Positions 1,406 to 28,082 are shown, counted from the stretch's first letter. The stretch is DNA of 64,000 nt from Candidatus Poribacteria bacterium (GCA_965222225.1 CBDCTK010000002.1:3104001-3168000); one strand, 5' to 3'. Numbers and translations: made by a program. The notes: a model not told the origin generated them from the sequence alone.

Positions 1406-1441
1406 ATCAAGCGAGTGAAAAGCGAGCGCGATAGAAATCCT
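1406..1441 (+). repeat. 36-nt structured dispersed element (copy A) inside a GCGGGGCAAG-type REP hairpin
   Basis: ATCAAGCGAGTGAAAAGCGAGCGCGATAGAAATCCT matches nine other copies; flanks GTGGGCGGGA / GTCTTGCCCCGCC resemble the intact hairpin at 21761-21784. Confidence 0.85.
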
Positions 1442-1585
1442 GTCTTGCCCCGCCATGCGCATACGATCACGCTCGGACAATCGCTCGCTTAATCTATCCG
1501 CACGGCTGATCGATGGAAATTCTATAAAACTTCCCAAGATATAACGCATCTACCTATGTGCAATTGCTCCCGGAAATAAAGTCAA

Positions 1586-3130
1586 ATGTTCACTCGACGA
1601 GAACTGCTGAAAACCCTTGGAGGTGCAGCTATGGCATCAGCGCTTGCGCCGTACTCTGCGGCGGCTGTTGATGAGAGGCAAGACAAACCGAATATCGTAC
1701 TAATTGTCGCGGACGACATGGGCTGGTCGGACGCGGGATGCTACGGCGGTGAAATAAACACGCCGAGTATCGACAGCCTAGCCAGCGACGGGTTGCGATT
1801 CAACCAGTTTTACGTGAATCCCGTCTGTGCCCCCTCTCGCGCGGCGTTAATGACCGGCTTGTATCCTCGCAATTACAAGGGATCGACGAGCGCGCTAACC
1901 CCGAACATGGTGACCGTGGCACAGGCATTGCGTTCCGCAGGATATCGCACCTCGATTAGCGGCAAGTGGAATTGTCAGCGCCAGAACCCGAACACTCCCT
2001 TGGCGTGGGGTTTTGAGGAGTTCTACGGTTTTCCCGATATGCCGTCGAACTATTTCAATCCGGCGCTGGAAGACATGAAATTCGGCGGTTTCCGCCCGCC
2101 GTTCGAGCATAACGGCGAAGCGATTTGGGAGTTTCCGGACGACTTTTACGTGACCGATGCGATCAATAATCATGCCGTGGACATGATTAAACGGTACAGC
2201 GAGGGTTCGGACCCGTTTTGCGCTTATGTGGCGCATTTGGCGCCGCACAATCCGCTCCAAGCCAGACCGGAAGATATTGAACGATACCGTGGCAAATTCA
2301 TGGATGGCTGGGATGCGTTGCGCCATGAACGCCATGAACGCCAACTAAAAATGGGATTGGTGGACCCGGAATGGGGTTTGCTCGATTACGGCGACAATTC
2401 CGGCACCACGCCGTGGGCGAATGCGGAACATAAGGAGTGGCAGGACTTGCGGATGGCGGTTTACGCCGCTATGATTGACTGCATGGATAGGGGTATTGGC
2501 CGCATTCTACAGGCGCTCAGGGATTGCGGCGCGGATCGCAACACAATTGTTCTGTTTTTGTCGGACAACGGCGGCGATGCGGGCAACATGAGGTGGGATA
2601 GTCCGGACATTCCCCCCGGCGGCGTTGATACGTACTGTGCGTGCGGCACCGAGTGGGGGATCATGCACAACACTCCATTGCGTGGTTCCAAAGCCGGAGT
2701 CCATGAGGGCGGCATTGCTACACCGCTCATTGTGCGTTGGCACGATGCGATTCAAACGGGCGGTGAAATCACGAACCAAGTCGGTCATGTGATGGATCTT
2801 CTGCCTACGTTCTGCGATGTCGCCGGCGTTCAGTATCCCGACGAATACAACGGAGAAGAGATTATTCCCTGTGAAGGATTGAGCCTTCTTCCTATCTTCC
2901 AAGGGCAGCAGCGCGACGCCCACGAATGGCTGTTCTGGGAGCATAACGGCAAGAAGGCTGTCCGCCACGGAGACTGGAAATTAGTTGGACGCGACGGCCC
3001 TGCGAATTGGGAATTGTACGGCCTTGAATCCGACCGTACGGAGTTGAGGAACGTGGCGGAGAAGGAGCCAGAGCGCGTGAAGTTGATGGCGCAGGCATGG
3101 TCAGACTGGGCGGATCGGACGAACGGATGA
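1586..3130 (+). CDS. Arylsulfatase (Cys-type) with Tat signal peptide
   Basis: N-terminal TRRELLK twin-arginine motif, 'PNIVLIVADDMG', CAPSR catalytic motif, GKW, 'SDNGG' and 'EGGIATP'. Confidence 0.93.
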   Translation: MFTRRELLKTLGGAAMASALAPYSAAAVDERQDKPNIVLIVADDMGWSDAGCYGGEINTPSIDSLASDGLRFNQFYVNPVCAPSRAALMTGLYPRNYKGSTSALTPNMVTVAQALRSAGYRTSISGKWNCQRQNPNTPLAWGFEEFYGFPDMPSNYFNPALEDMKFGGFRPPFEHNGEAIWEFPDDFYVTDAINNHAVDMIKRYSEGSDPFCAYVAHLAPHNPLQARPEDIERYRGKFMDGWDALRHERHERQLKMGLVDPEWGLLDYGDNSGTTPWANAEHKEWQDLRMAVYAAMIDCMDRGIGRILQALRDCGADRNTIVLFLSDNGGDAGNMRWDSPDIPPGGVDTYCACGTEWGIMHNTPLRGSKAGVHEGGIATPLIVRWHDAIQTGGEITNQVGHVMDLLPTFCDVAGVQYPDEYNGEEIIPCEGLSLLPIFQGQQRDAHEWLFWEHNGKKAVRHGDWKLVGRDGPANWELYGLESDRTELRNVAEKEPERVKLMAQAWSDWADRTNG

Positions 3131-3184
3131 GGAATTAGGTTAATCGGGAATTAGGAGGCAACAGTCAGCACTGTCGCTGATCCG

Positions 3185-3499
3185 CTACGACGGGTTATCC
3201 CTTGCTTCTATCGAAAATCTGAACCCTAATCCAGGCAAAATTTTGCCCATTGTATTGAGTTGCGGGTTTCCATTCTCGGAAAGGGCTTTATAGAGTCCTT
3301 CACGGGTTAGGTCGACACGATTAGCCAACTTGGACATGCCACCCTGCGCTTCCGCCACATCACGCACTGCGAGCAGGAATGCTTCTATATCTTCGTCTTT
3401 CTCATAATCCTCAAGCGCAACGGAAAGGTATATCTTTGCGTCCTCCGGATCTCGTAATTGCTCAATATGTAAGTCTTTGAAACGTCTATAATTGCTCAT
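3185..3499 (-). CDS. Putative addiction-module antidote protein (HI1420-like HTH)
   Basis: 'YLSVALED...FLLAVRDVAEAQGGMSKLA...REGLYKALSENGNPQL' is the typical family pattern. Confidence 0.88.
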   Translation of the reverse strand: MSNYRRFKDLHIEQLRDPEDAKIYLSVALEDYEKDEDIEAFLLAVRDVAEAQGGMSKLANRVDLTREGLYKALSENGNPQLNTMGKILPGLGFRFSIEARDNPS

Positions 3500-3543
3500 G
3501 TTCTAACTCCCTTGCCCGATGTTCCTTCTAGGCTGGAGTTTAC

Positions 3544-3574
3544 AAAGGCTGGTGAGCAGTGCCCACCCTACAAA
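3544..3574. repeat. GTAG-type REP hairpin
   Basis: AAAGGCTGGTGAGCAGTGCCCACCCTACAAA; near-identical copy at 7210-7240, variants at 5458-5485 and 28031-28095. Confidence 0.8.
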
Positions 3575-3602
3575 GCCATAGTTCTAGAGATAAAAAGGGT
3601 TT

Positions 3603-4742
3603 TTACACGAAAACGCGGGGCAACAGGGGATTGATCCGGGTGACTATCTCATAAACGACCGTATCTATTTTCTCCGCAAGTTCTTCGGCGGTTATCTGCT
3701 CCTCGCCCGCTCCCCCAAGGAGCACCACCTCATCGCCGAGGCGCGCCTCGGGAACCCCTGACACGTTGACGACGGTTTGGTTCATACATACGCGCCCCAC
3801 TACGGGACAGCGCACCCCTTGAATCAGCACTTCCGCTTTGTTTGAGAGCCCGCGGTCATACCCGTCGAAATGGCCTATCGGCAGAATTGCCAAGGTTTCC
3901 TCACGTCTTGTACGATAGGTGCCGCCATAACTCACCAATGAGCCTTTGGGCACTCGCTTGACCTGCACGATTCGAGTTTTCCACGTGAGCGCCGGTTGAA
4001 GCGAAAACTCGGGATGGCGTATTTCCATCTGTGCGCGGCAGTGGCTGGAGGGGTACAATCCGTATAGAGAGATACCGATGCGGCAGGCGTTGCCGAGGAG
4101 ATTCTCGCGCATACTGCCTGCCGAGTTATACAGATGATGCAGGGGTATGGAGATTCCGCGCTCGCTTAATTGGTCTTGCAGCGTTCTAAAACGCGATTCT
4201 TGTACCTCCGTGAAACCGCTCTCCTCATCCGCTGTCCCAAGATGCGAAAACAGCCCTTGGATGGTTATTGCGGGCGTTTTTCGGGCTACCTCGATAAATT
4301 CAAGCGCCTCGGTTTCAAGCACCCCAAACCGCCGCATACCGGTATCTACTTTGATATGAATTCGCGCGGTGCGATTCGTCTCGGCGGCGGCGGCTTGAAG
4401 CGCGCCCAGCATCTCTAGGTTATATACCGAAAGTTCAAGCCCCTTTTCTAGTGCCTCCTTGAGCAACCTTTCATCCCCGCAATCCACGTTACCCATTATC
4501 AGCAGTTTTTGATTGATTCCATTCTTCCGTAACTCCAGCCCCTCCTCAATTGACGAGATTGCCATATAGGCAACCTCGCCCTTAATCGCCTCTGCCACGC
4601 CGGACATTCCGTGACCGTACGCATTCGCCTTGATGACGGCGATAGGCGTGAATTCAGGGGGGAGAATCGCCTTTAGCTGACCGAGGTTATGTTTGAGCGC
4701 TTTTTTGGATACTTCAACTGTGGCGAGCGGCATTTGTCTCAA
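3603..4742 (-). CDS. alr: Alanine racemase (alternative ATG start at 4733)
   Basis: PLP-lysine motif AVIKANAYGHG, 'HIKVDTGMRRFG', 'VSYGGTY', 'GRVCMN' and 'YEIVT'. Confidence 0.96.
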   Translation of the reverse strand: MRQMPLATVEVSKKALKHNLGQLKAILPPEFTPIAVIKANAYGHGMSGVAEAIKGEVAYMAISSIEEGLELRKNGINQKLLIMGNVDCGDERLLKEALEKGLELSVYNLEMLGALQAAAAETNRTARIHIKVDTGMRRFGVLETEALEFIEVARKTPAITIQGLFSHLGTADEESGFTEVQESRFRTLQDQLSERGISIPLHHLYNSAGSMRENLLGNACRIGISLYGLYPSSHCRAQMEIRHPEFSLQPALTWKTRIVQVKRVPKGSLVSYGGTYRTRREETLAILPIGHFDGYDRGLSNKAEVLIQGVRCPVVGRVCMNQTVVNVSGVPEARLGDEVVLLGGAGEEQITAEELAEKIDTVVYEIVTRINPLLPRVFV

Positions 4743-4809
4743 CTAGGAGGGGATGGGTACGAGAGAACGGAGCGGGATAAAGGGAGATCAAACAAGCGGA
4801 TAGCGAGCA

Positions 4810-4845
4810 AGATTTTCTATCGCCCTCCCTGTCCGGTCGGTTGAT
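4810..4845 (-). repeat. 36-nt structured dispersed element (copy B), next to a partial copy at 4787-4808
   Basis: Reverse complement is ATCAACCGACCGGACAGGGAGGGCGATAGAAAATCT. Confidence 0.8.
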
Positions 4846-4856
4846 CCTCGCCGCTA

Positions 4857-5315
4857 CTAGTTGATCCAGTCGAGTGCAACTTTGACGACGACTTTGTGAA
4901 CGACTTCGTCCGTTCCCATCGGCGCGTGCGCGTCTTCCGGGAAGAAGATAACAAAATTGCCTGCGGGCACCGTTGTCCATCTCGACGGCGGATTTGAAAA
5001 CAACGTGGCATCGGATTCAGGCATATAGCCGTTCTCATCCGGTTCGCAGACCGCGAGATCTTCCCAAGCGATATCGTCATAGCCCGCGACCGTAAACTGT
5101 ATGTCGATAAACTGCCTGTGCGATTCAAATTTCGCCGCGGCTTTTCCCTTCCCTTTGGCTCTCATCACCATGGCATGCAACTGTTCGCCTGCGATTTCGT
5201 TTCTGCCGTCGGGGATTTCGGCGAGATCGCCGCGTTTCAGAAATTGAAAGGCGGCCTCAAAGCCGGGGTGCAGGGGAAAATAGCGGGATGCGTTCTCAAG
5301 ACTATCTAATATCAT
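4857..5315 (-). CDS. YhcH/YjgK/YiaL family protein
   Basis: 'FESHRQFIDIQF' and 'FVIFFPEDAHAP...KVVVKV' family motifs. Confidence 0.92.
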   Translation of the reverse strand: MILDSLENASRYFPLHPGFEAAFQFLKRGDLAEIPDGRNEIAGEQLHAMVMRAKGKGKAAAKFESHRQFIDIQFTVAGYDDIAWEDLAVCEPDENGYMPESDATLFSNPPSRWTTVPAGNFVIFFPEDAHAPMGTDEVVHKVVVKVALDWIN

Positions 5316-5457
5316 CTGATGCTCCTTCGGTAGTGGCGGTCACAAAATCTATGTTGTTTTCGCGGCTAACTATCCTGATTCGTTGTCGGCGATTCTACTA
5401 TCTTTCGAGATTATGGTCAATAGAAAACGGAATTCCACGACCCAAGCACCAGTTTTT

Positions 5458-5607
5458 GTAGGGTGCGCATGGCGCACCAGCCTTTCGCTCTTGGTTTCTT
5501 GTAGGAGCGAGTTGTACTCGCGATTCCTCTCTAGGTGCAATCTCCTGGTCGCGAGCTGGAGAGAGAGATCTATCGCCCTCACTATTCGTTCGGTTGATCG
5601 CTCCTAC
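5458..5607. repeat. Cluster of GTAG-type REP hairpins
   Basis: GTAGGGTGCGCATGGCGCACC at 5458, GTAGGAGCGAGTTGTACTCGCG at 5501 and an inverted ...CGCTCCTAC ending at 5607. Confidence 0.75.
5563..5598 (-). repeat. 36-nt structured dispersed element (copy C) inside a REP
   Basis: Reverse complement is ATCAACCGAACGAATAGTGAGGGCGATAGATCTCTC; it interrupts CGCGAGCTGGA...CGCTCCTAC. Confidence 0.85.
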
Positions 5608-5620
5608 ATGCTCACGGGAA

Positions 5621-7006
5621 TTATCTTATCCGGAACGCGTAGAGTTTTGCGTTGCGGAGCTGAAATCTAAGGCGAACCTTCTTGCCTCGGAGCCGATCCA
5701 AATCTCGGCTCTCCGCCCATTTCACGGGGGAGTCCGTGACCGTGGCACCAACAGGTTCACTGACGGCTTGCTGTTCGCCCGCCTCATCCAGAATTGCCAC
5801 GCGAATTTCCCCGTCATCCCTCACATCGGCGGTTATGCCGACGATTTCTCCGTCAAAGTCTAACGCCTCGGTTGTTATGAGAGCTTCGGTCCCCGCTGAG
5901 ACGGGTTCGTAGCCTGCCCAGCCATCCGGTCGGAGTGTGGCAAGCGCAAGGTATCCTTTGCGCCAGTCGAAAAAGTACCAATCGCAGGCGCCGTAATAAA
6001 TCCGAATCTCATCCCCCAAGAAAATCGGTGCGGAGGCGAAGATAGTTCCCCAGTCATACGGCATCTCCCCATAGCGTGCAGCACCTCCCGGGGTGTTCCC
6101 GATAAGCGGCACACCTTCTTGGATGCGATGCCATGTGAAGGTGTCTGGACTCCATGCCAATTCGACGTGCTGCTTCACACCGGCGGCGGAATCTTTCGGG
6201 TCTTCTGGGTACGTCATCATCCCCAACAATCCGATATAGATGCCGTGTGTCGGAAACACAATCATATCGTGAGCTTGAAGACGCGAGTTGGGGCCCACAA
6301 GAACCGTTTTATCTTCGGTCCACTTCACAAAATCGGGAGACTCCGCCCGCGTGACCAGTCGAATCCCATCCGCGTGTTGGCGCGTGATGCCCACATATTT
6401 GCCCAGACTTGGCGCCCAGAAGGCGTTGGCATGGGTGCCGTGCGCCTCAATCTCCGCAATCGGGATGGGATCATCCCAATGCAAGCCGTCCGCCGAAAAC
6501 ACCACTTCCATTTGCGGATTACCGCAATGGAACATTTTATAGCGCCTCGCCGGATCGGTCTCGCGATAGTCCTTGAAGACACCGGCACCGTGAATCTCGC
6601 GCACGAGGAGATTGTTCCGTTTGTCCCCATCAAACTCAACCAGACCGATATCGGGTTTGTCCCAACGGATGCCGTCGGTTGAGACCGCGTAGCAAAGCCC
6701 CAGTTCCCGATGGTCGGGTTTGACATCCGAGTAGTTGAGCGACTCGGGATTGCGCTTCTCCGGCGGTACACAGGTCACCCGCTCGTCAATGATGAACGGA
6801 TTGTACCAACACTTGTAGATTTCATCGTCTTCATCATAAATGACGTTGGCGTACACATTGTCGAAACGGGGTTCCCACGGTTTATCCTCGGCGAAAAGCG
6901 GGTTCTGCGGGTGCTTGGAAACTTCACCAACGGTGAGTTTTGCGTCCACGGTCTCGTCAATGATGCGAGAATCCAGCACTAGGTGCCGGGTTTGTTCGGT
7001 ACTCAT
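5621..7006 (-). CDS. Beta-propeller glycoside-hydrolase-like protein (GH32/GH130-like)
   Basis: 'YAVSTDGIRWDKP', 'YIGLL', 'LATLRPDGW' and C-terminal 'LRFQLRNAKLYAF'; AGGAG RBS upstream. Confidence 0.72.
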   Translation of the reverse strand: MSTEQTRHLVLDSRIIDETVDAKLTVGEVSKHPQNPLFAEDKPWEPRFDNVYANVIYDEDDEIYKCWYNPFIIDERVTCVPPEKRNPESLNYSDVKPDHRELGLCYAVSTDGIRWDKPDIGLVEFDGDKRNNLLVREIHGAGVFKDYRETDPARRYKMFHCGNPQMEVVFSADGLHWDDPIPIAEIEAHGTHANAFWAPSLGKYVGITRQHADGIRLVTRAESPDFVKWTEDKTVLVGPNSRLQAHDMIVFPTHGIYIGLLGMMTYPEDPKDSAAGVKQHVELAWSPDTFTWHRIQEGVPLIGNTPGGAARYGEMPYDWGTIFASAPIFLGDEIRIYYGACDWYFFDWRKGYLALATLRPDGWAGYEPVSAGTEALITTEALDFDGEIVGITADVRDDGEIRVAILDEAGEQQAVSEPVGATVTDSPVKWAESRDLDRLRGKKVRLRFQLRNAKLYAFRIR

Positions 7007-7028
7007 ATATCTTCTCCTTGATGCTGTA

Positions 7029-7093
7029 ATACCATTTTCCTATATTTGCAATGCATTAAGAGTGTCAATCAAGTCTTTCCAATGCGGGGCAAG
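7029..7093 (-). promoter_or_regulatory. 65-bp upstream module shared with 21707-21771 (extended -10-like TGGTAT(T/A)AC plus REP half)
   Basis: Ungapped alignment to 21707-21771 gives 53/65 identities by hand count; both lie just upstream of minus-strand genes. Confidence 0.6.
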
Positions 7094-7193
7094 GGGATCT
7101 CTATCGATCAACTGAGATCAAGCGAATGAATAGTGAGCGCGATAGAGATCTTATAGCGAAGGCGATAGCAAATCCTGCTCACTATCCCTTAAT
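7094..7193. repeat. Triply nested 36-nt elements (intact innermost copy D at 7117-7152)
   Basis: Outer copy halves at 7094-7106 and 7177-7193, middle copy halves at 7107-7116 and 7153-7176, inner copy ATCAAGCGAATGAATAGTGAGCGCGATAGAGATCTT. Confidence 0.78.
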
Positions 7194-7209
7194 CCCACGC
7201 CGGGGCCTC

Positions 7210-7240
7210 AAAGGCTGGTGGGCAGTGCCCACCCTACAAA
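7210..7240. repeat. GTAG-type REP hairpin
   Basis: AAAGGCTGGTGGGCAGTGCCCACCCTACAAA, stem GGTGGGC/GCCCACC. Confidence 0.8.
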
Positions 7241-7311
7241 TGTACTTTGCGGATTGAGTTTGGCAGTCGGTTACAACTAGCCCTAAACCGCGAAATCGCG
7301 CCTGTGAAGGA

Positions 7312-7980
7312 TTACCACGTAAGCATCTCTCTGGGGAGATGGGAGATTCTGTGCAGGTAGCGTAACTGCGCACCTTCTCGGGTTTTTCGGATTTTACTAA
7401 ACGCTCCATTGCGGTGAGGGAATCGGTCGGGATCGTCATTGGGCGGCAGGTCGAAAAATGCGCCAACCATCGTCGCCAGAAATCCGCCGTGGGAGACCAC
7501 CGCCACCCGCTCATCGGATTCGCCGTGGATCGTTTCCGCCTGTTGAATGAACGCGCCCGCATCGCGATATGAACGCCGGAGCATCAATTCGACGTTCTCC
7601 CATTCCGAAAATAACCACCCCTCATCCGTGACTTCCGGAGGCAGAATCACATTCGGACAAAACTCCCTCATTTGCGTTCGGGTAAGACCGGGAAGTGTAG
7701 CGCCGTATCTGCCGACACTCGCCTCCCATATACCGTCCCATTCGTGAAGTCCAACGTAGACGTGGGGCGGAAGCGTGAGAATTCGCCCAAGAATCTCGGC
7801 GGTCTGCAAGGCTCTCAGCATCGGGCTGCAGTAAAGTCGGCGAATGCCTTTTTCTCGGAGGGCTTTGCCGACACAACCCGCTTGTCCCCGACCTAGGTTT
7901 GTCAGTGCCGGATCCGGTTCGAGGGCGCCGGGCGAGGCATTGTTAACGGATTGTCCGTGGCGGACGAGGTAGAATTCCAT
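7312..7980 (-). CDS. Histidine phosphatase (phosphoglycerate mutase-like) family protein
   Basis: 'YLVRHGQS', 'SPMLRALQTA' and 'VVSHGG'. Confidence 0.92.
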   Translation of the reverse strand: MEFYLVRHGQSVNNASPGALEPDPALTNLGRGQAGCVGKALREKGIRRLYCSPMLRALQTAEILGRILTLPPHVYVGLHEWDGIWEASVGRYGATLPGLTRTQMREFCPNVILPPEVTDEGWLFSEWENVELMLRRSYRDAGAFIQQAETIHGESDERVAVVSHGGFLATMVGAFFDLPPNDDPDRFPHRNGAFSKIRKTREGAQLRYLHRISHLPREMLTW

Positions 7981-12150: not shown

Positions 12151-12229
12151 CTATGTACCTGTCGCCCCGCTGGGGCTTAGGTGCGTGAGGTATCGGCGTT
12201 CTATACACCTGTCGCCCCTCTAGGGCTAT
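12151..12229. repeat. Tandem pair of REP-like hairpins
   Basis: CTATGTACCTGTCGCCCCGCTGGGGCT and CTATACACCTGTCGCCCCTCTAGGGCT; an interrupted relative lies at 27967-28027. Confidence 0.7.
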
Positions 12230-12267: not shown

Positions 12268-12339
12268 GGATTTACTAACGGGATTTGCTATCGCGCTCAT
12301 TATGCATTCGCTTGATCCCTCGTTATTCACTCCGTTGAT
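12268..12339 (-). repeat. Two nested 36-nt elements (inner 12281-12316; outer 12268-12280 plus 12317-12339)
   Basis: Removing the inner 36 nt leaves GGATTTACTAACGCCCTCGTTATTCACTCCGTTGAT, itself a 36-nt copy. Confidence 0.85.
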
Positions 12340-12352: not shown

Positions 12353-13945
12353 TCAATTCTCAGGCGGGAGGAGGCGAAAGCTGTAGAGTTTTGCGCCTTT
12401 CAGACGAAAGCGAAGGCGGCACGGTTGTTCCGCTTGATTCAAGCCGCGGTCCCCCCAGCGAACAGAATGGCGCACGTGGTCACCCCGTATAGGCGTGCAG
12501 GTTTCCGCCGAGAATCCGGGCTGCACCTGCCCGTCAGGGGACAGCACCTCGACGGCAAGGCTGCCGCCGCTCGCGTCGACGTTCACTTCGAACCTGCCAT
12601 CTGGCAGTTGCAGGGGAACGGTTTCAACCACGCCGTCATCCGCATCGAGCGAGACAAAGCCGTCCAACCGCCAACTGGCTCTACCGATGGACATCACTTT
12701 GTCCTTGAGCAGCTCGCCGTGCGTCTGCGTGCTGCCGGTGTAGTACCAGTGTATCCCGTCATCCTCCACCAAGGGTTCTTTGGCGGTGAAGAGAATCATG
12801 CCCGAATCGAATTCGCCTCCCTTCCCGCGCGGGAGAATCGGGGTTCGGTCTTCAAAATGGCGCCAGTTTACGCCGTCTCGGCTGTAGATGAGTTGCGCAT
12901 CAATCGGACCATCGACGGCTGCCTGCCCGGGCACGGTATTCACGATGTCCTCGGTGACGTATAAGACGCCCAAGAGACCGATATAGATGCTGGGGATCTC
13001 TATCGCACGAGAATTTCTATCGCCCTCGCTATTCACTCGGTTGATCCCTATTCGGTCGTTTGGTCGATAGGGAAAGCCGGACATGTTGTGAAACTCCGCG
13101 CGGATAGCGCCGTAGCGCTCCTTGCCGAGCGCGTCGTCTTCCGGATTTGGTTCCAGGATGGGCGTTATCTCCGACCACCCGCTTTCCAATCTCTTGCTCT
13201 CGCTGTATTCGATGTGACGACGCTCCCCTCCCCTCCCGACCAGCATATAAGAGAGGTAGCGGTCAGCCCTTTCATCGCATACCACATTCGTAGGTCCCTC
13301 ATTTGCGCGCTCTATCACCGGCTGTTTCAATCCCTCATCGCTCCAACGGATGCCGTCGGGCGACGTAATTAGGAAGATGTTCCGGTAGCGGCGGCAAAAA
13401 CCGATCGCTTTGTAACGCTCCCTTTCGTCCCGCGGGTCATCCTCAAGAAAAACGCTGGCGCCGTGCAAGTCCCAAACGATGTTGTTATTCGGGCTTTCGT
13501 CAAAATCGAATATCCCCAGATTCGGTTTGGTCCACGTCAGCCCATCATCGCTCTCGGCATAGCAGAGCAGGTCGCCGATGTCGCTGCCCCGGAAATGCCT
13601 TCCGTCATCGTCGGTGCGGCGTCCCATGTACCGGGTAGCGTCTCCAGCGCCGGTGCGGGGCACATATAAGCCGGGAATGCGGTGTCCGTGATCCGGATCC
13701 ATGCGAGCCATATACCACATCTGGAATTTGTTCGTCCGATTGTCGTGCAGCACGGTTCCCAAGAGATTGACCCGCTTGGTTCTCTCGGGACCGTCATTTT
13801 CCCACGGCTTGTCGGGTTCCGGTGCTATGACCGGATGCGGTGTTTTGGTCGCCGGATGGAGCGTGCGGGTGACGCCGCGCTTCGTCTCAATGAGTGCATC
13901 GTCTACAAATAATTCTGTGCCGTAACCGAGTTCGTGTGGTTTCAT
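12353..13945 (-). CDS. Beta-propeller glycoside-hydrolase-like protein carrying a 24-aa repeat-derived insertion
   Basis: 'ELFVDDALI', 'YAESDDGLTWTKP', 'WRLDGFVSL' and 'LRFRLKGAKLYSF'; extra PNDRIGINRVNSEGDRNSRAIEIP before SIYIGLL. Confidence 0.72.
   Translation of the reverse strand: MKPHELGYGTELFVDDALIETKRGVTRTLHPATKTPHPVIAPEPDKPWENDGPERTKRVNLLGTVLHDNRTNKFQMWYMARMDPDHGHRIPGLYVPRTGAGDATRYMGRRTDDDGRHFRGSDIGDLLCYAESDDGLTWTKPNLGIFDFDESPNNNIVWDLHGASVFLEDDPRDERERYKAIGFCRRYRNIFLITSPDGIRWSDEGLKQPVIERANEGPTNVVCDERADRYLSYMLVGRGGERRHIEYSESKRLESGWSEITPILEPNPEDDALGKERYGAIRAEFHNMSGFPYRPNDRIGINRVNSEGDRNSRAIEIPSIYIGLLGVLYVTEDIVNTVPGQAAVDGPIDAQLIYSRDGVNWRHFEDRTPILPRGKGGEFDSGMILFTAKEPLVEDDGIHWYYTGSTQTHGELLKDKVMSIGRASWRLDGFVSLDADDGVVETVPLQLPDGRFEVNVDASGGSLAVEVLSPDGQVQPGFSAETCTPIRGDHVRHSVRWGDRGLNQAEQPCRLRFRLKGAKLYSFRLLPPEN
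12993..13064 (-). repeat. Two nested 36-nt elements inserted in frame within a CDS
   Basis: Inner copy 13010-13045; outer copy 12993-13009 plus 13046-13064; 72 nt equals 24 codons. Confidence 0.85.
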
Positions 13946-14110
13946 ATTTTTCTGATGTTCAAGACTTAAGCACGTTGCCTTGATTATATAACGGAATTAG
14001 TAGCTTGTAGCTTTTAGACTGACGACAAACATAAAACTTGGTACCCTGTCGTAAATCTTTTCGTCACACGTAGATGTCCATAGTGACTATTCTTCTCGTA
14101 GGAGTTTGCT

Positions 14111-14965
14111 ATGGACATTTTGAATCTTATGAAAGAGTTTCCAAATCAAGAATCTTGTCTCAGATTTATAGAGGAAAAACGTTGGAAGGACGGTGTTTGC
14201 TGTATCCACTGTGGCAGTGAAAAAGTTGGACGCAAGAACAGAAACGACATTACTACTGGTTGGAATTGCTACGATTGTGAATCTAGCTTTTCGGCTACAG
14301 CAGGAACCATCTTCCATGGTACCAAGATACCTCTCCAGAAATGGTTTTTGGCTATCTCAATCCTTTCCAATGCCAAGAAAAACATATCGAGTTGTCAGCT
14401 TGCTCGTGACTTGGACATGAATCAAAAGTCCGCTTGGTATATGGCAATGCGCCTCCGTGAGAAAATGAGTGATAGTGATGAATTGCTGAAAGGGATAGTT
14501 GAAGCAGACGAAACCTATGTCGGCGGCAAACCCAGAGCAAAATCTAAGAGAGGTAGAGGCACAAATAAATCTCCCGTCATCGGCGTAGTCGAGAGAGGCG
14601 GTCGGGTGGTTGCTAAATTCATGAAGGTTCTATCTGGTGAAAATATCAGAGAATTCATCCTTAGCAATGTCTCACCCGATGAGTCTATTCTTATGACTGA
14701 TGAATTTCGCTCTTACAATAGTCTGGACGAAGATATCGAAAGACATGTTATCCATCACCAAGAGAGATATGTTTCTGAGGACGGCGTAACTCACACCAAT
14801 ACCATCGAGTCGGTTTGGGCTTGTGTCAAGAGGTCATTCTACGGAACGCATCATCACTACAGCAAGAAGTGGCTGCCACTGTATATCATGGAGTCTTGCT
14901 GGAAATATAATCGCAGAAAAGATGATGAGATTTTCATAAGATTTTTTGATGAATGCTTCACCTGA
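14111..14965 (+). CDS. IS1595-family (ISXO2-like) transposase
   Basis: Zn ribbon CxxC..CxxC, HTH, 'VEADETYVGG', 'TDEFRSY' and 'HTNTIES'. Confidence 0.95.
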   Translation: MDILNLMKEFPNQESCLRFIEEKRWKDGVCCIHCGSEKVGRKNRNDITTGWNCYDCESSFSATAGTIFHGTKIPLQKWFLAISILSNAKKNISSCQLARDLDMNQKSAWYMAMRLREKMSDSDELLKGIVEADETYVGGKPRAKSKRGRGTNKSPVIGVVERGGRVVAKFMKVLSGENIREFILSNVSPDESILMTDEFRSYNSLDEDIERHVIHHQERYVSEDGVTHTNTIESVWACVKRSFYGTHHHYSKKWLPLYIMESCWKYNRRKDDEIFIRFFDECFT

Positions 14966-14983
14966 GCCACATGAATTGTTTGG

Positions 14984-15106
14984 CTATCGGTATATTCTGT
15001 CAACGACAGCATCATGGTATGATGTAAATCCCATAGTGTTGGAAATTAAAATCCCGCAGATAACCCGCAATGCTCCCGCGAGCATGTACAAACGCTTGGT
15101 CAACAT
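14984..15106 (-). CDS. 40-aa putative passenger ORF inside IS1595 copy 1
   Basis: GGAGG RBS upstream of the ATG; MLTKRLYMLAGALRVICGILISNTMGFTSYHDAVVDRIYR; open in both IS copies. Confidence 0.35.
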   Translation of the reverse strand: MLTKRLYMLAGALRVICGILISNTMGFTSYHDAVVDRIYR

Positions 15107-15240
15107 GATATGCCTCCATTTCTCTCTTATAGAGATGTATTTTAGTGTGAATCAAGATTCCGAACACTGTCTAAAGTTATTGTACATTAAGAAAAGAAAA
15201 GCAAGCAAATCAACCAAAAAGCAGTTAACTACTAAGTCCC

Positions 15241-16828: not shown

Positions 16829-17886
16829 TCAGCGTAAACCCCCGTAGAACTCACTGTCGCGCCGGCAAAACAAGTCGAGGAAATTCCTGGGGTAGGGATG
16901 GGGTGGTTCACTGACCTCTCTCAATTCATTCACTTCATCGTCAGAAAGCTGAAGACGTAGCGATTCCAAAAGGTTTGAATACTGCTCTAGCCGGGATCCT
17001 CCCAAGAGAACGACATCAGAGGTGCCTGCCTGAATCATCCAGCGTGTGGCAACATTCGGAATTGTGTTGTCATAGCGCTCGGCGATGCGGGCAAGTACAT
17101 CCAACGTTGCCCAATTCCTCTCAATGGCAAGGTTCTCCCAGGAGGAACTTTCGCTCGGCTTCATCTGCTCGAACCGGCTGCCTGGAACTGGCTCTTCGAC
17201 ACCTCTGCGGTATCGACCTGTAAGAAAGCCCTGAGCCATCCCCATGCGATGGTAGATACCTTGGCATCCCGGCACGCCGGGATGATGGAGTGCTCAGCAC
17301 CCCTGTCTGCAAGGTTGTACCAGATCTGGTTGGAGATGGGAGCGGTTAAGTTTGTAAATCTGGCAATGGTGCTCGCCTTCATAACATGCCAACCATCCCA
17401 GTTGCTAACGCCTATGTAGCGAATCTTCCCTGCCCTGACAAAGTCATCCAACACCCGCAGCGTTTCTTCCAAGGGCGTGTAGAAATCCCACGCATGGCAC
17501 TGATAAAGATCGATATAATCTGTATTCAAGCGATTGAGACTATTCTCGATTTCTTTGGTAAGATAGGTACGAGAAAGTCCAACGCTGCTTGGCCGAACTT
17601 CATCTTCCATTAACCAATACCCTTTGGTCGCAATAACAAATTTTTCCCGCTTGCCTGCGACCATTTTTCCCACGGTCATTTCTGAAGTTCCGGCCATGGC
17701 GGTATTGGTTCCTCTAAACCCGCCGCCATACAGATTCGACGTGTCTATCAGATTGCCGCCTGCCTCCTGATACATGTCCACGATTCCCTGCGAGGTTTTT
17801 TCATCAAGCGTGGTGCCGAAGGGAATCGCCCCTAACCCAAGGCGCGCTACTTGCAATCCTGAGTTGCCTAAAAAGCAATACTCCAT
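16829..17886 (-). pseudogene. Aldo/keto reductase split by a frameshift near 17240
   Basis: The N-part (IDTSNLY, YIDLYQCH, GKIRYIGVSN) changes frame at 'TIAWG' and continues as 'MAQGFLTGRY'. A sequencing error cannot be excluded. Confidence 0.85.
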
Positions 17887-21674: not shown

Positions 21675-21706
21675 CGCGTAACTCCTTTCTCGACAGACTC
21701 ATTGTT

Positions 21707-21784
21707 ATACCATTTCTCTATATTGGCAGTGCATTAGTAGCGTTAATCAAATCTTATCAGTGCGGGGCAAGATGCCCCGCCTAC
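21707..21784. repeat. 65-bp upstream module (homologue of 7029-7093) ending in an intact REP hairpin
   Basis: TGCGGGGCAAGATGCCCCGCCTAC at 21761-21784; alignment to 7029-7093. Confidence 0.7.
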
Positions 21785-22978: not shown

Positions 22979-23117
22979 TATTACCTCGTCGCTAATCTGC
23001 GATAAAGGCGGCTAAGGGATAACACTTTCCCCGCAACAACAACTCAGATTGCCGTATGCATAAGCTGACGGGTGCAGATAACACTTTTCCATTTAGGGAA
23101 ACCCCGCCTGATGCGAG

Positions 23118-23350
23118 TTATTCTCGGGGTTTCTCGTGTAGGAGGGGCATCGTAATCATCCATACATCACCCAAGACGTTTCTTGCCATATCGTAGAGCC
23201 TGAAGACATTGCGTGAGTGACTGCCATCGGGACTTAATCCTTTACAGGTATGGTTGGCATCGTCACGCGAAATATCATCTCCATGCAGATAGTGCTGGGC
23301 GGCCAGTTTTCTACGCGCAGCCTTTTCCAACTTCGCTTCGGTGCGGAATT
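23118..23350 (-). pseudogene. Decayed formylglycine-generating enzyme (SUMF1) domain fragment
   Basis: 'TEAKLEKAARR...DDAN...NVFRLYDMARNV' resembles the FGE motifs TEAEWEKAARG and NGYGLYDMAGNV. Confidence 0.65.
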
Positions 23351-23407
23351 GTTTCATTACCCATATCGACGTTAAACTCATTGGCACGCCATTTGTCGAT
23401 CGAGGCG

Positions 23408-24154
23408 CTACTTCGTGGTGTACCCGCCATCGACAACCATAACTGAGCCGGTTACATATGACGACTCATCACTCGCCAAGAACAGTGCGGCATACGCGAC
23501 TTCAATCGGTTCAGCAAAACGTTCCAATAGGTTCGCCTTTCGATACGGTGCAAGGTGTTCCTCGGGGATGTTTGCTGCCATGGGTGTGTTCATCGATCCG
23601 GGGCAGATTGCGTTGACCCGGACGTTCTCTTGGGCGTGATCGCATGCCATGCATCTAACAAGCCCGATGACACCGTGCTTGGAGGCATTGTAAGATGCTT
23701 GGTTCGGTTGGCCGACCAGCCCCGAGATTGAGGAGATACAGATAATACTCCCACTGCCTTGCCGGCACATCTGCGGTATGACAGCCTTGGAACAGAGAAA
23801 AGTTCCCTTGAGGTTTACCCCTAGAACATAGTCCCACTCCGCCTCAGTCGTGTCAGGCACGTTCTTTTCGACTTGGACGCCCGCATTGTTGACCAAGACA
23901 TTGACACCGCCATAAGCATCGACAGCGTCGCCAATCAAGAGGGTAGCGTCGTCCGGGTTCGAGACATCTCCCCGAACAAAAATCGCCTCGCCCCCTTGCT
24001 CGCGAACTTGACTGACCGTTTCTCGCCCCGCCATCTCATTGATGTCAAAAATGACTACCCTGGCACCTTCACGGCTAAACAGTAGCGCCATCTCCTGGCC
24101 CAGCCCCATACCTGATCCCGTAATGACGGCAATCTTGTCTTTCAGTCGTGCCAT
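23408..24154 (-). CDS. Short-chain dehydrogenase/reductase
   Basis: TGSGMGLG, NNAG, YNASK and 'VDGG'; AGGAGG RBS. Confidence 0.95.
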   Translation of the reverse strand: MARLKDKIAVITGSGMGLGQEMALLFSREGARVVIFDINEMAGRETVSQVREQGGEAIFVRGDVSNPDDATLLIGDAVDAYGGVNVLVNNAGVQVEKNVPDTTEAEWDYVLGVNLKGTFLCSKAVIPQMCRQGSGSIICISSISGLVGQPNQASYNASKHGVIGLVRCMACDHAQENVRVNAICPGSMNTPMAANIPEEHLAPYRKANLLERFAEPIEVAYAALFLASDESSYVTGSVMVVDGGYTTK

Positions 24155-24220
24155 TGGCAACTACCTCCTTAACGTAGCTGTGGCTTTGTTGAAATTTTCC
24201 TCGGCTGAGTTATTGTCCCG

Positions 24221-25015
24221 CTAACGTGGCGGGACTTCTTGGGCCACGTGATTTACCCCTTTGAAATTAAAACATCCCGGTGCGAACTCCCGCATACGAT
24301 GTATCCACGCTTCACGCTTGGGGTTCCCTCTGGAATTCGCTACCCAAGATGTGTAGTCGACCGCGTTGCCGATAAGCTGTTTCCGGCAGGCTTCTTCCGC
24401 TTCCGGTGTCTTGGGGTTATTGTAGTAGCAGAGGACGCACATGCGGCGGTCAATTGAACCACCCCAACTGGCATGCCAGCAGCGGAGGTCGAAAGCGACA
24501 ACATCGCCCGGCCTCGATTCACACACATAGGCTGGAACCTCGGGAATGCTTAACCCGCATCGGTCCAGATTCCGCCGAAGTTCGTTGTGGAGGGGCTGTC
24601 TATGCGACCCTGGAATCACCCGAAGCGCGCCGCCTTCTGCACCCATTGGCTGCAAATAGTAGGCGAATTTGACGCCGTAGTGATGCTGCACACTACCCGT
24701 GTCGGGATGCCAGCCCGTGTCCCCCACATATCGGTTAATATTGGAAATAGTAGCCAAGACGTCTTCGCCGTAGAGTTGCTCGGCTATTTCGCAGAATCGC
24801 GGGTCTTCCAGCAACGAGGAAAAGAAGGGGGTGCGCGGTCCCATCGTCAACAGGCGATGCCTACGCGTTCCATCAAATGGTGCATGACAAAACTCGGACT
24901 CCATTGCACCCTCGAATTCAGCGTTGATAGTCCGCAGTTCGTCCGGACCGAACAACTCCCGGAAGATCAGAAATCCGAAAGTTTGAAACTGAATGAGTTG
25001 TTGTTCCGTGAGCAT
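24221..25015 (-). CDS. PhyH-family Fe(II)/2-oxoglutarate dioxygenase
   Basis: 'FQTFGFL', WHPD, 'LRVIPGSH' and 'PGDVVAFD...WHAS'. Confidence 0.9.
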   Translation of the reverse strand: MLTEQQLIQFQTFGFLIFRELFGPDELRTINAEFEGAMESEFCHAPFDGTRRHRLLTMGPRTPFFSSLLEDPRFCEIAEQLYGEDVLATISNINRYVGDTGWHPDTGSVQHHYGVKFAYYLQPMGAEGGALRVIPGSHRQPLHNELRRNLDRCGLSIPEVPAYVCESRPGDVVAFDLRCWHASWGGSIDRRMCVLCYYNNPKTPEAEEACRKQLIGNAVDYTSWVANSRGNPKREAWIHRMREFAPGCFNFKGVNHVAQEVPPR

Positions 25016-25154
25016 GATGTTCCTCCTCTTTCACACAAGTTTTTTATTCGGCGAACAGCGGTTGACGGTTAGGGAATGCCTGCACTCCCTCCGCTAGCGA
25101 GTACAAACACGACACATCGTGTTTCTAATGCTGGCCTTTCAGGTTTGAAGGGGA

Positions 25155-25904
25155 TCAAAGGAGCCCAGGGGCCAGCTCTCGCATCTGATTTATCCAGCGT
25201 TGGCGTTTTGGATGAGCTTCGGAATTCGCAACCCAAGGTGTGTAGTCAATCTCATTAAGGACAAGCCGTTCCCGGGTAGCTTCTTTCGCTTCTGGCGTCT
25301 TGGGATTGTTGTAGTAAACCATGACACACATGCGACGGTCGTTCGAGCCTCCGCAACTGGCATGCCAGCAGCGGAGGTCGAAGGCAACTACATCGCCCGG
25401 CTCGGATTTGCACACGTAGGCCGGCACGTCGGGGATGCTCAACTCGGACTTGTCCAGATTCCGCCGCAGCTCATCGTGAAGAGGCTGCTTATGCGACCCT
25501 GGAATCACCCGAAGCGCGCCGCTTTCTGCACCAATCGGTTCCAGATAGTATGCGAATTTTACACCGTACTGATTCTGCACACTTCCCGTATCGGGATGCC
25601 AGCCCGTGTCCCCAACATAACGGTTGATATCAGAAGCAATTCCGAAGACGTCTTCGCCGTAGAGCTGCTCGGCTACTCCACAGAATCGCGAGTCTTCCAG
25701 CAACGAGGTGAAGAAGGGAGTCTGTGGTCCCATTGTCACCAGCCAATGCCGACGCGTTCCATCGAACGGGTCATCCTGAAACGCAGCTTCCATCGTTTCC
25801 ATGAACTCAACGTTGATGGTTTCGAGTTCGTCTGGACTAAACAAACTCCGTAAGGTCACGAATCCGAAGGTTTGAAAGTGAATGAATTGCTGTTCCGTGA
25901 GCAT
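25155..25904 (-). CDS. PhyH-family dioxygenase, tandem paralogue of 24221-25015
   Basis: Same motifs and long stretches identical to the neighbouring gene. Confidence 0.9.
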   Translation of the reverse strand: MLTEQQFIHFQTFGFVTLRSLFSPDELETINVEFMETMEAAFQDDPFDGTRRHWLVTMGPQTPFFTSLLEDSRFCGVAEQLYGEDVFGIASDINRYVGDTGWHPDTGSVQNQYGVKFAYYLEPIGAESGALRVIPGSHKQPLHDELRRNLDKSELSIPDVPAYVCKSEPGDVVAFDLRCWHASCGGSNDRRMCVMVYYNNPKTPEAKEATRERLVLNEIDYTPWVANSEAHPKRQRWINQMRELAPGLL

Positions 25905-26514
25905 GATGTTCCCCCTTATCCACAGAATTGCCCGAGCCTATTTACACCACAGAATCCCGGTAGGCATTGCAATTCTCTTTTCTAAAAATCTGGTCTTGAC
26001 AAGATCATAAGTACCAAGACATGATTAAATCAATATTTGGACTTCCGAAGTCTTGGCGTGCGCCTATAAAAATGATCGTGTCCATGTACCGCAAGTATTC
26101 CAATATGACGGCAGGAGACCAATACTGGATGAACGATTGGTTATATATTACTATACTGTGAAACGATTTATCAAGAGAAATTAGTTAATCGGCGGTTACA
26201 CTACCGGATCACAGTCCGGCTAGCGTTGCAATCAATTGTTCGCTGCATCATTGAATAGCAGGGCGATATGCGGCTTTGGAAAAGTCTTGAAAAGTGTTAC
26301 GGTAATATATCAAGCCTAAATTGATCTCGATTTCGAACTTGCCTCCGGTATATTGGATATGGGCCAATCTGTGCCCCAGGTCAATTCATACTAGCCCCGG
26401 GGGGCGAATTCAGTGATAGAAAGAGTTTAGGGCATATTGACCTTTCGTCCCTGCCCACTTTCTTCCGTGCTCCTTTATTAAGTTTTGAAAGGCAGAAATT
26501 ACTCATTACGCTTT

Positions 26515-27690
26515 CTAACCCCAACTAGCAATAAAGTCTTCGACATCGAAATTGGATGGCATCTCGTAAAAACAGTATTTCATCGGGCCCGACTGAAAGC
26601 CGGGAACATACTGCTCTGTATCTAATTGCAGTTTTGCATCCAGCGGTACAAATCGGGCCCAGAGTGCTTCGAGTTCTTCAGAAGAGAAGTATTGGGCAAT
26701 TTGCTTATATCTTTTCAGATCGCCTCCATAACTTGTTGGTTCAAATCGCATCTTGTATGCTAATTTGGATAACAGTATGACGCACACGATACGTCTGTTC
26801 TCACCGGGATGGAGCGCAGCGAGTCCGACGCGGAAAGCGTCAGCGTCCTTGTTGATGATTGCTTTGAACACTGATACAACGCAATGACACTCTTGGTGGA
26901 ACACCGTTTCAAACCGTTCAAACATCTTCCGTATCGAAAGTGAGAGGTGTTTGGTGAAGTCTAAATCCCAATAGAAATGCGGAACATGGGGATAAACCAA
27001 TCCACCAAAGGGGCGGTAGCCCAAGTGAATCGTTCGCCGTAACTTCGTATTATAGTTGCTGCCCCAGTGGAGGATGGTATTCGTATAGGCAACACCATCG
27101 CCCGCTTTCAATTCTACCGGGACACTATTCGGTAGTGGCAGCTTCGGATCTTCTAGCAGTTGACGATCTTCCGGTCCAGTATTGGGACGACGATGGCTAC
27201 CCGGAACCACCCAAAGCACATCATCATCGTAAAGCGGGATGTTCCACTGTATCAGTCCCGGAGCATTTTCTAGCAGGTCCATCTGCAAGCCGGTCAAGGG
27301 CGCCTGATCAATGGGATGTATATCACGGTGCCAGTTTGCCGGACCATGATCGCGCACGGGGCTACACATCAAGAACAGCGCCGTAACTGCTGCGTCGGAG
27401 GCACACATTAGTTGGCGGCTAACGCCCATTGTATTTTGGTGCAAGCAAAACTCGACAGTGTTGTCGGTGGTTTCATCAACGACGGTATCGAACCACAACC
27501 GTGGTTGAGCGGAGGTTTCCCATACGCCGCCCGGCGGGTCATCAGGATTGCGCTCACGCTCCCAAATTGCCTTCTGTCGTTCAACAAGCACTTCAAAGCT
27601 ATATCGCAGCGGGTTTAATTGTTCCGGCGGGACACACTCCCGTATAATCAGATAGCCATCGTCAATTAATTGTCCACGATTGACTTTCAT
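26515..27690 (-). CDS. PhyH-family dioxygenase with C-terminal extension
   Basis: 'DDGYLII', WHRD, 'VVPGSHRR' and 'LKAGDG...LHWG'. Confidence 0.87.
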   Translation of the reverse strand: MKVNRGQLIDDGYLIIRECVPPEQLNPLRYSFEVLVERQKAIWERERNPDDPPGGVWETSAQPRLWFDTVVDETTDNTVEFCLHQNTMGVSRQLMCASDAAVTALFLMCSPVRDHGPANWHRDIHPIDQAPLTGLQMDLLENAPGLIQWNIPLYDDDVLWVVPGSHRRPNTGPEDRQLLEDPKLPLPNSVPVELKAGDGVAYTNTILHWGSNYNTKLRRTIHLGYRPFGGLVYPHVPHFYWDLDFTKHLSLSIRKMFERFETVFHQECHCVVSVFKAIINKDADAFRVGLAALHPGENRRIVCVILLSKLAYKMRFEPTSYGGDLKRYKQIAQYFSSEELEALWARFVPLDAKLQLDTEQYVPGFQSGPMKYCFYEMPSNFDVEDFIASWG

Positions 27691-27978
27691 GGTTGGTTCC
27701 TTTCGTTAACCGTAATGTCGCTGTCCAGTTCTTCCCCATTCCACTAAATCTGTTTCGCGGACACTGACTTCCAGCTTGCTCCACCCGGTAAAGCTCCGGA
27801 GCAGGCCAGACTCAAAGGCCGTTCCAAACCAAGGTTCAGGGGTCGACAGGTAGAACGCAAAAGCACCTAATGAGGTGTGGATGCTTAAGAACCTGTTTGA
27901 ATAATCGGTGGCAAAGCCATTTTTGGTCATTTGTAGAAAGTTTTTTCATGTTTTCATTGTTGGCTGCTACATACCTGT

Positions 27979-28014
27979 GGGATCCCTATCGCACTCGTTA
28001 TCCACTCGCTTGAT
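27979..28014 (-). repeat. 36-nt structured dispersed element (copy G)
   Basis: Reverse complement is ATCAAGCGAGTGGATAACGAGTGCGATAGGGATCCC; removal restores TACCTGT^CGC as in the REP at 12151. Confidence 0.87.
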
Positions 28015-28046
28015 CGCTGCTGGCGCTTTCAAAGGCTGGTGCGCAG

Positions 28047-28082
28047 GGGATCTCTATCGCAGTCATTATTCATTCCTTTGAT
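28047..28082 (-). repeat. 36-nt structured dispersed element (copy H) in a REP loop
   Basis: Reverse complement is ATCAAAGGAATGAATAATGACTGCGATAGAGATCCC; flanked by GGCTGGTGCGCAG and CGCACCCTAC. Confidence 0.87.

Follow-up and report, generated by a model that had tools for sequence, protein, structure and literature searches.

A strand-specific mobile element of 36–37 nt with a covarying hairpin in Candidatus Poribacteria

A short dispersed repeat in a sponge symbiont genome

The 64,000-nt stretch of DNA analyzed here (the window; GCA_965222225.1 CBDCTK010000002.1:3104001-3168000) belongs to a Candidatus Poribacteria metagenome-assembled genome (MAG) from a sponge symbiont (5.70 Mb in two contigs; labelled G000) and carries, like the rest of that genome, copies of a 36–37-nt repeat, the ATCAA element, which is strand-specific mobile DNA. 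The reading that we favor, with a probability of about 0.5, is that resident Y1 (HUH-type) transposases move the element in trans in the form of single-stranded DNA, the element being non-autonomous and having a single hairpin. Other mechanisms stay open because target bases are lost on insertion, the replication strand is opposite to that of IS608, and co-distribution with an enzyme gene is lacking.

Using a structure-blind pattern (N at every variable position, up to three mismatches), we counted 1007 copies in G000 (547 plus, 460 minus), against none with the reversed pattern. A position matrix refined the consensus to G/ATCAA-NN-GA-NN-G-RAT-A-NN-GA-NN-GCGATAG followed by the tail ARATCYY, where the slash marks the left junction and the preceding G is part of the target, not of the element. 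The tail is 7 nt and sometimes 8 nt, an extra base preceding it in ~168 of the 1007 copies, which gives a unit of 36 nt, or 37 nt with the longer tail. The family, amounting to ~0.6% of these genomes, is strongly extragenic: a frame that runs through the copy and stays open for ≥60 codons in each direction exists for only 25 of 1004, compared to 1110 of 2000 random 36-mers. It therefore has the form that defines repetitive extragenic palindromes (REPs), namely a short (20–40 nt) imperfect palindrome that is highly repeated and mostly extragenic. In the window, the 29-nt core pattern with up to two mismatches matches at eight positions (1406, 4817, 5570, 7117, 12288, 13017, 27986, and 28054), while none of 100 shuffled windows had a match; the window total is eight intact and at least four interrupted copies.

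Hairpin and covariation

The four variable pairs of the hairpin covary strongly. Among the 1007 copies, which were picked without regard to pairing, pair 6:22 is intact in 94% (53% expected from column composition; mutual information 0.77 bits), pair 7:21 in 94% (55% expected; 0.95 bits), pair 10:18 in 96% (49% expected; 1.17 bits), and pair 11:17 in 96% (79% expected; 0.42 bits), with all remaining pairs of variable positions at 0.21 bits or less. An earlier reading of the window from its sequence alone (hereafter, the sequence-only reading) had proposed these same four pairs from ten copies and named covariation in a larger alignment as the check; the proposal holds at this scale, and its hand count of 39 intact pairs out of 40 is recovered as 32 of 32 in the eight intact copies plus 7 of 8 in two outer copies of nested loci. 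That reading had also taken the ATCAA strand to be the folded one. Among the G000 copies, G:T outnumbers A:C at pair 6:22 by 251 to 8, and T:G outnumbers C:A at pair 11:17 by 139 to 19, from which it follows that only the ATCAA strand can fold.

A covariance model built from the eight window copies returned 211 matches in 638,669 nt of other Poribacteria genomes, the best 150 of which were used and comprised 137 distinct copies. In these, 98.5% of cells were paired, compared to 80.1 ± 0.8% in shuffles, and both sides had changed in 203 cells, compared to 33.6 ± 6.4 (none of 500 shuffles was as high in either measure); sliding the partner positions lowered pairing to 14–48%. Given that this alignment was fitted to the structure, it is biased, and the unbiased evidence is the 1007-copy set.

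The conserved scaffold comprises 21 positions and leaves four base pairs free, in helices of just 2 bp separated by the invariant G8A9/G19A20. Fully paired copies (837 of 1007) occur in 94 distinct four-pair combinations, and the four pairs assort almost independently of one another, which is unusual for the subfamilies of a transposable element. Individual pairs are broken in 4–6% of copies, approximately the rate of change at conserved positions.

A comparison with Rfam, as the sequence-only reading had proposed, matched the copies to no described RNA family: there was no match at the gathering score of any curated covariance model across the whole window, and none on the copies at E ≤ 1 over positions 1–30000. 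We also considered guide-like pairing between stem and target and rejected it, finding no more than 0.06 bits of mutual information between stem and flank (null maximum, 0.03); the 0.22 bits between tail and flank arise from tail-length variants. As a separate observation, a GATC site (G0-A1-T2-C3) opens ~90% of the G000 copies, and where tail position 31 is G, as in 466 of 1007 copies, the tail contains the bases of another GATC. These two sites could pair and join the element ends, though no covariation supporting such pairing was found.

Evidence for mobility

Copies sit within other copies in 191 of 1007 cases, most often after G23 (64 in the same orientation, 30 opposite), followed by G19/A20 (33) and G12 (23). 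When a copy is deleted in silico and its flanks are joined, the product is often a sequence that occurs elsewhere in G000. This applies to REP-C, whose uninterrupted form CACTGCG-C-ACCAGCC has 57 occurrences in G000 and of which 15 sites are filled. All 48 copies found inside four GTAG-tagged REP families lie on the GTAG strand, and REP-A is a further repeat interrupted by copies.

Orthologous empty sites, for which the sequence-only reading had suggested looking, exist both in the window and elsewhere. From 265 copies at loci in other genomes, we placed 36 in G000 by both flanks; G000 is without the copy at 20 of these, both genomes are filled at 11, and G000 has more at 4. Several of the 11 shared sites have flanks rich in repeats and may be paralogous, leaving too few secure pairs for an in situ test of compensatory change. 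At one site in unique DNA (G000 C2:4113957), three genomes carry three different stem variants, which suggests repeated hits at hot spots. Public Logan contigs end at element copies in the window (4840/4817, 5598/5575, 7150, and 13045/13019); among the Logan contig alignments listed there were no clean 36-nt skip joints, the contigs breaking at the copies instead. The element breaks short-read assemblies at every copy.

Neighboring copies less than 200 nt apart (n = 270) are mostly direct (214, with 56 inverted), and this clustering at 36–100-nt spacing, together with one 38-nt tandem array, is what CRISPR-like arrays or plain tandem or segmental duplication would produce without any mobility. 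We hold this explanation to be next to negligible, given that adjacent units carry different stems, the apparent "spacers" consist of other repeats, single copies make up 597 of 768 clusters, and empty sites match the element ends exactly. The arrangement also lacks the regularity of a CRISPR array, with stems that differ between neighbors, spacing that varies from 36 to 190 nt, and other repeats in between (cas genes were not searched).

The tandem array itself (G000 C2:1578265-1578700) is built of 38-nt units, each a 29-nt core plus TCTTGTAGG, in which neighboring units have different covarying stems. The subfamily with the tail TCTTGTAGG recreates a preferred target, which may explain the array as serial insertions into a target that each unit recreates.

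Distribution within Poribacteria and the question of host function

Of 121 Poribacteria genomes, 15 contain the exact 30-nt pattern, and the covariance model returns the same 15. These include all eight genomes of the window's genus (g1; 281–768 exact-pattern matches each) and all four of genus g3 (113–128 matches each), with three further genomes having 1–2 copies each; the pattern is absent from the 32 genomes of g4 and the 45 of g6, and the reversed control from all 121. In a contig scan with one genome per species, there were at least 80 matches, and all among those listed are Candidatus Poribacteria MAGs, while no viral contig matched the element pattern. In the literature on Poribacteria repeats and REPs, we found no description of such an element. 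None of the refuting outcomes named in the sequence-only reading was thus observed. The family is also a clade marker within the phylum.

The persistence of the family in 8/8 and 4/4 genomes of these two genera, the very strong conservation of the 21 scaffold positions, and the 94–96% pairing in ~1000 copies would each be expected of a host-functional structured motif (a protein-binding DNA site or an RNA element) kept copy by copy through selection, with mobility incidental. Even so, we consider such a function very unlikely. Orientation is indifferent to genes, copies lie within other repeats, within one another, and within a coding sequence, the number of exact-pattern matches varies from 281 to 768 inside one genus, and different variants occupy the one unique-DNA site in three genomes. 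The 4–6% of broken pairs, being close to the level of change at conserved positions, fits neutral decay after insertion.

Junctions and target site

The left junction is exact and always falls between the target G and A1, with G preceding 900 of 1007 copies. Insertion is always 3′ of a G, usually in CG or GG, with C or G at position −1 in 864 of the 1007 copies and in 201 of the 247 that lie in unique context. The target is not duplicated. In contrast to the exact left junction, the right one is ragged, and 1–3 target nt are lost. In REP-C, a single C is replaced by 36 nt (14 sites) or 37 nt (1 site), and the last base is T in 10 of 15 filled sites, where empty sites have C in 57 of 59. Among the self-insertions at G23, 20 copies end in T followed by GATAG, C24 being gone; two bases are missing in REP-A and at a second REP-C site, and three at one unique site.

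Target-primed synthesis typically leaves this polarity of an exact left and a ragged right end. In a retro-insertion model, the ATCAA strand would be cDNA copied from antisense RNA, with the 3′-OH at a nicked target G as the primer, which would account for the exact 5′ junction, the ragged far junction, the variable tail length, and the loss of 1–3 target nt; RNA intermediates are reportedly suspected by Elhai et al. (2008) for the small dispersed repeats (SDRs) of Nostoc. We regard retro-insertion as unlikely. The only reverse transcriptase candidate is a single weak RVT_1 match without a link to the element, copy orientation shows no relation to transcription (309 copies sense, 278 antisense, as detailed below), and both the 48/48 placement on the REP GTAG strand and the tracking of GC skew point to the replication fork and REP-binding enzymes instead. 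The RVT_1 match (27.5 bits) lies in a 670-aa open reading frame (ORF; G000 C2:4499560-4501572, L187 514-2526(−)), which may encode a defense-type reverse transcriptase.

Orientation follows GC skew

The orientation of the element follows local GC skew, measured in a ±25-kb window with elements masked, and not transcription. Across all copies, 327 plus and 102 minus lie in regions of negative skew, and 124 plus and 264 minus in regions of positive skew. Taking one copy per 2-kb neighborhood (547 loci), the counts are 174/47 and 78/136 (odds ratio 6.5, p = 2e-19), and the 247 copies whose flanks are unique retain the bias (71/22 and 35/63). Of 435 loci where skew is clear, 310 have the folding strand on the C-rich strand. 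Where the flanking genes are co-directional, based on crude gene calls, 309 copies are sense and 278 antisense, and the Spearman rho between orientation and gene-strand fraction is −0.10, compared to +0.44 between skew and gene-strand fraction. Under the skew convention assumed for the phylum, the C-rich strand is the leading-strand template and has the sequence of the nascent lagging strand.

The GTAG strand of the resident REPs shows the same skew bias (REP-C, 51/10 in negative and 10/35 in positive skew; REP-D, 47/14 and 23/36). Given that these REPs are linked to REP-associated tyrosine transposases (RAYTs), no special mechanism is needed to explain the bias of the ATCAA element. We noted separately that GC skew on G000 C2 flips sign many times in 100-kb bins, rather than dividing the contig into two replichores, and that element orientation tracks the local sign; the flips could be the result of many inversions or of assembly joins.

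Resident transposases and their repeats

The sequence-only reading had suggested searching for a co-distributed HUH/RAYT transposase or reverse transcriptase gene, and this expectation was not borne out: besides the weak reverse transcriptase match above, G000 has five loci matching Y1_Tnp, none of them a dedicated partner. The best Y1 match, a protein of 157 aa, exceeds the cut-off of the NCBIfam IS200 model (65.8 bits; cut-off 55) but not that of the REP-tyrosine-transposase model (30.6 bits; cut-off 80), and it resembles the ISDra2 transposase. ATCAA copies flank its gene in inverted orientation. We examined this locus as a possible REPtron (a RAYT gene flanked by an inverted repeat) of the element and rejected it, the adjoining ATCAA copies being secondary insertions into the gene's own REP-A. 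REP-A (GCCCCAGCGGGGCGACAGGTGTATAG) itself flanks the 157-aa IS200-like gene in inverted orientation, often in several tandem copies, across 76 of 121 Poribacteria genomes and in every genus examined; repeat and gene form a REPtron-like arrangement with a non-GTAG repeat. In the window, REP-A is found at 12151-12176(−) and 12201-12226(−), and further loci include L108 and L109-L127.

The other Y1 genes each lie between their own GTAG REPs, such that each intact Y1 type sits in its own REPtron. The GTAG-tagged families are REP-C (GTAGGGTGCGCACTGCGCACCAGCC), REP-D, and REP-G, each of which has its own RAYT gene in relatives; GTAG REPs occur in the window at 3547-3571(−), 5458-5482(+), 7213-7237(−), 5531-5554(+), and 21762-21784(−). 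A 247-aa RAYT-like gene (G000 C2:2563965-2564705(−), L002) has no flanking repeats and is 99% identical in G019 and fragmentary in G115. No master locus beside an enzyme gene was seen in the single-hit genomes G078, G061, and G001.

Mechanism of movement

In the favored reading, the element, comprising one small imperfect hairpin and a 7–8-nt tail, would be mobilized as single-stranded DNA. One or more of the RAYT- or IS200-type Y1 (HUH) tyrosine transposases of G000 would cut and join it in trans, positioned at folded hairpins of REPs or of the ATCAA element and nicking G/N steps in their vicinity. The conserved unpaired bases (A4A5, G8A9, G12, A14-A16, G19A20, G23C24, and A28G29) would act as a protein-recognition scaffold, with pairing the sole requirement at the four free base pairs. 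According to Ton-Hoang et al. 2012 (PMC3333891), the E. coli RAYT recognizes the REP together with its 5′ GTAG tag, cleaves only single-stranded DNA, and acts at C/T around the bound REP, similar to the proposed nicking at G/N. The lack of target duplication and the landing 3′ of a short motif are as in IS200/IS605. The reading also draws on the evidence for mobility, the strand specificity, the link of orientation to replication and not to transcription, the presence of five Y1 loci, and the single weak reverse transcriptase match.

Several observations weigh against this reading. No target bases are lost in HUH strand transfer as it is known from IS608, and the junction chemistry is wrong for it, with 1–3 target nt lost and a ragged right end. 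The active strand of IS608 and ISDra2 lies on the lagging-strand template, according to PMC5027513, and the folding strand of the ATCAA element is on the opposite replication strand to IS608; this comparison depends on positive skew marking the leading strand, which is assumed for the phylum and supported solely by the gene-strand correlation of +0.44. No Y1 locus of G000 and five relatives showed consistent native ATCAA flanking that would mark a dedicated transposase. The 157-aa gene family is present in 76 of 121 genomes, including genera g4 and g6 without the element, and was not found in two of the four g3 genomes, which carry 113–121 exact-pattern copies; the 247-aa RAYT-like gene is present in just 3 of 121. 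Energy folding is also unfavorable. In 4 of 5 copies, the proposed fold has the lowest energy under RNA parameters (−4.3 to −6.1 kcal/mol), and it is not obtained on the complementary strand, but it is no more stable than shuffled sequence (z −0.77 to +0.76), and with DNA parameters it is not returned (z +0.8 to +1.4). The fold therefore rests on covariation, and non-canonical G.A pairs or protein binding are probably required for it.

Some of these same observations would be explained by a non-RAYT enzyme that inserts free 36-nt hairpin DNA into the nascent lagging strand by a polar, rolling-circle-like or ligation-type reaction, a new mechanism perhaps common to the cyanobacterial SDRs. Lying on the C-rich strand, the folding strand corresponds in sequence to the nascent lagging strand, opposite to IS608, the Y1 loci of G000 and five relatives yielded no cognate transposase, and target bases are lost. 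The hairpin 9 nt before the 3′ end, moreover, resembles the terminator ends of IS91 and Helitrons. We consider this an improbable explanation, given that the RAYT-linked REPs of G000 share the strand bias and that no candidate gene was found, although the Y2_Tnp profile search is uninformative in this respect, with control genomes equally silent.

A bolder form, which we put forward tentatively and judge unlikely, is an undescribed polar mechanism with no element-specific transposase, in which the free folded strand of 36 nt would be joined by its 5′ end to the 3′-OH of a G in the nascent lagging strand or in fork-extruded hairpins, the far end being resolved imprecisely by the host. The protein-recognized scaffold of tandem G.A pairs would then be the element's only "gene", and by analogy the same may apply to the cyanobacterial SDRs. 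If true, this would constitute a new class of minimal mobile DNA.

Relation to known repeats

The closest known things are the Nostoc SDRs and the REPs. SDR1-8 of Nostoc punctiforme and relatives, reportedly described by Elhai et al. in 2008, are said to be 21–27 nt long, to form a hairpin with compensatory changes, and to be nested. They resemble the Poribacteria element in being very short, in having a compensated hairpin, in nesting within themselves and other repeats, and in being confined to a clade; self-nesting, compensatory hairpin changes, and clade restriction are all found in the Poribacteria element. The SDRs differ in belonging to Nostocales and in length (21–27 nt compared to 36–37 nt). 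The SDRs are not known to have 2-bp helices interrupted by G.A, exact-left and ragged-right junctions with 1–3 nt lost, a GC-skew strand bias, or in-frame genic copies. No enzyme is known for the Nostoc SDRs and, to our knowledge, how elements of a few dozen bases move has been an open question since these were described in 2008. The ATCAA element behaves as one of the smallest mobile elements known, and its family offers a second system, independent of the first and from another phylum, whose features are sharp enough for testing.

REPs and REPINs, as characterized by Bertels and Rainey 2011 (PMC3116915), Ton-Hoang et al. 2012 (PMC3333891), and Di Nocera et al. 2013 (PMC3733652), are likewise imperfect palindromes of 20–40 nt that are strand-specific and extragenic, occur in hundreds of copies and occasionally in ORFs, and in which non-complementary stem bases matter. 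The ATCAA element coexists with several classical REPtrons and shares their replication-strand bias. In the REP super-families (Di Nocera et al. 2013), one end carries a tag, GTAG or CGTC, that is unpaired, and neither tag is present at either end of the ATCAA element, the GTAGG upstream of some copies being host REP sequence. Unlike REPs, the element is mobile as single units, uses REPs as targets, and has no RAYT gene with native copies, as no Y1 gene is flanked by native ATCAA copies in the manner of a REPtron. The inverted doublet that constitutes a REPIN is not the unit here either, given the excess of direct pairs (214 to 56), the 597 singlets among 768 clusters, and the gains of single 36-nt units.

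Several properties are shared with the IS200/IS605 family and its non-autonomous derivatives, the mechanism being as described in PMC5027513 and PMC3333891: strand specificity, insertion 3′ of a short motif, no target duplication, a hairpin located ~9–10 nt ahead of the right end, and an association with replication. The element departs from that model in having one hairpin instead of two subterminal ones, a target motif of ~2 nt (SG), lost target bases, and the opposite replication strand; a G left flank in 900 of 1007 copies and the lack of duplication agree with single-strand insertion, but the missing 1–3 target nt do not. Rickettsia palindromic elements, as described in PMC3733652, are also palindromic and can lie in frame in protein genes, with the frame open. 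The unit of the ATCAA element is only 36 nt, with long open frames running through just 25 of 1004 copies. Rickettsia palindromic elements are, by comparison, ~100–150 nt and often genic.

Copies within the window

The copies in the window are as follows.

1406–1441, plus strand: intact copy, intergenic, alone among the eight in having A, not G, before it
4810–4845, minus strand: intact copy in the loop of a GTAG-tagged REP hairpin (GTAGGGGCGAG...CTCGCCCC)
5563–5598, minus strand: intact copy within a REP-D-type hairpin (GTAGGAGCG...)
7117–7152, plus strand: intact copy, innermost of a three-level nest
7107–7175, plus strand: middle copy of the nest, split by the inner copy into 7107–7116 and 7153–7175
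7093–7196, minus strand: outermost copy of the nest, degenerate, split into 7093–7106 and 7176–7196, the middle copy having entered after CTATCG
12281–12316, minus strand: inner copy, sitting after G23 of the outer copy
12268–12339, minus strand: outer copy, split into 12317–12339 (positions 1–23) and 12268–12280 (position 24 to the end)
13010–13045, minus strand: inner copy, within the coding sequence of ORF 12353-13945(−)
12992–13065, minus strand: outer copy, split into 13047–13065 and 12992–13008, in frame in ORF 12353-13945(−)
27979–28014, minus strand: intact copy
28047–28082, minus strand: intact copy; its variant (ATCAAAGGAATGAATAATGACTGCGATAG) is the commonest, and it is in direct orientation to the preceding copy, 68 nt away

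The ten copies that the sequence-only reading had listed correspond to the eight intact copies and the outer copies of two nested loci. Its interpretation of those loci (12268-12339 and 12993-13064) was correct, the outer copy being split by the inner at each, and the locus at 7093-7196 is a three-level nest that adds two interrupted copies to the ten.

Comparison with relatives shows these sites empty, filled, or differently filled. At 1406–1441, the orthologous intergenic region of G019 is without the copy (140 nt compared to 225 nt), and a public Logan contig of a related strain spans 1365 to 1590 with ~33 nt instead of 225. The REP hairpin at 4810–4845 is uninterrupted in G103 and G010 and is filled in G031 and G000 with differing stem variants. 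The intergenic region of the three-level nest contains zero copies in G010, G115, and G019, and one minus-strand copy in G103 and G031.

The nested pair at 12992–13065 adds 72 nt, or 24 codons, to ORF 12353-13945(−). Orthologues have no insert in G103, G115, and G019, one 36-nt copy in G031 (+12 a.a), and two in G000 (+24 a.a), with the frame open in all five genomes compared; the element thus adds 12-codon blocks to proteins. The protein encoded by this ORF matched no Pfam family.

Two further observations concern other parts of the window. A fluoride riboswitch match at 17353-17421(+) is below threshold (18.1 bits, gathering score 34; E 0.92) and is probably due to chance. A ~1.2-kb segment at 13991-15211 has copies of 90–99% identity at several places in G019, G103, and G010, has 5–10× higher contig depth in public runs, and is probably an insertion sequence.

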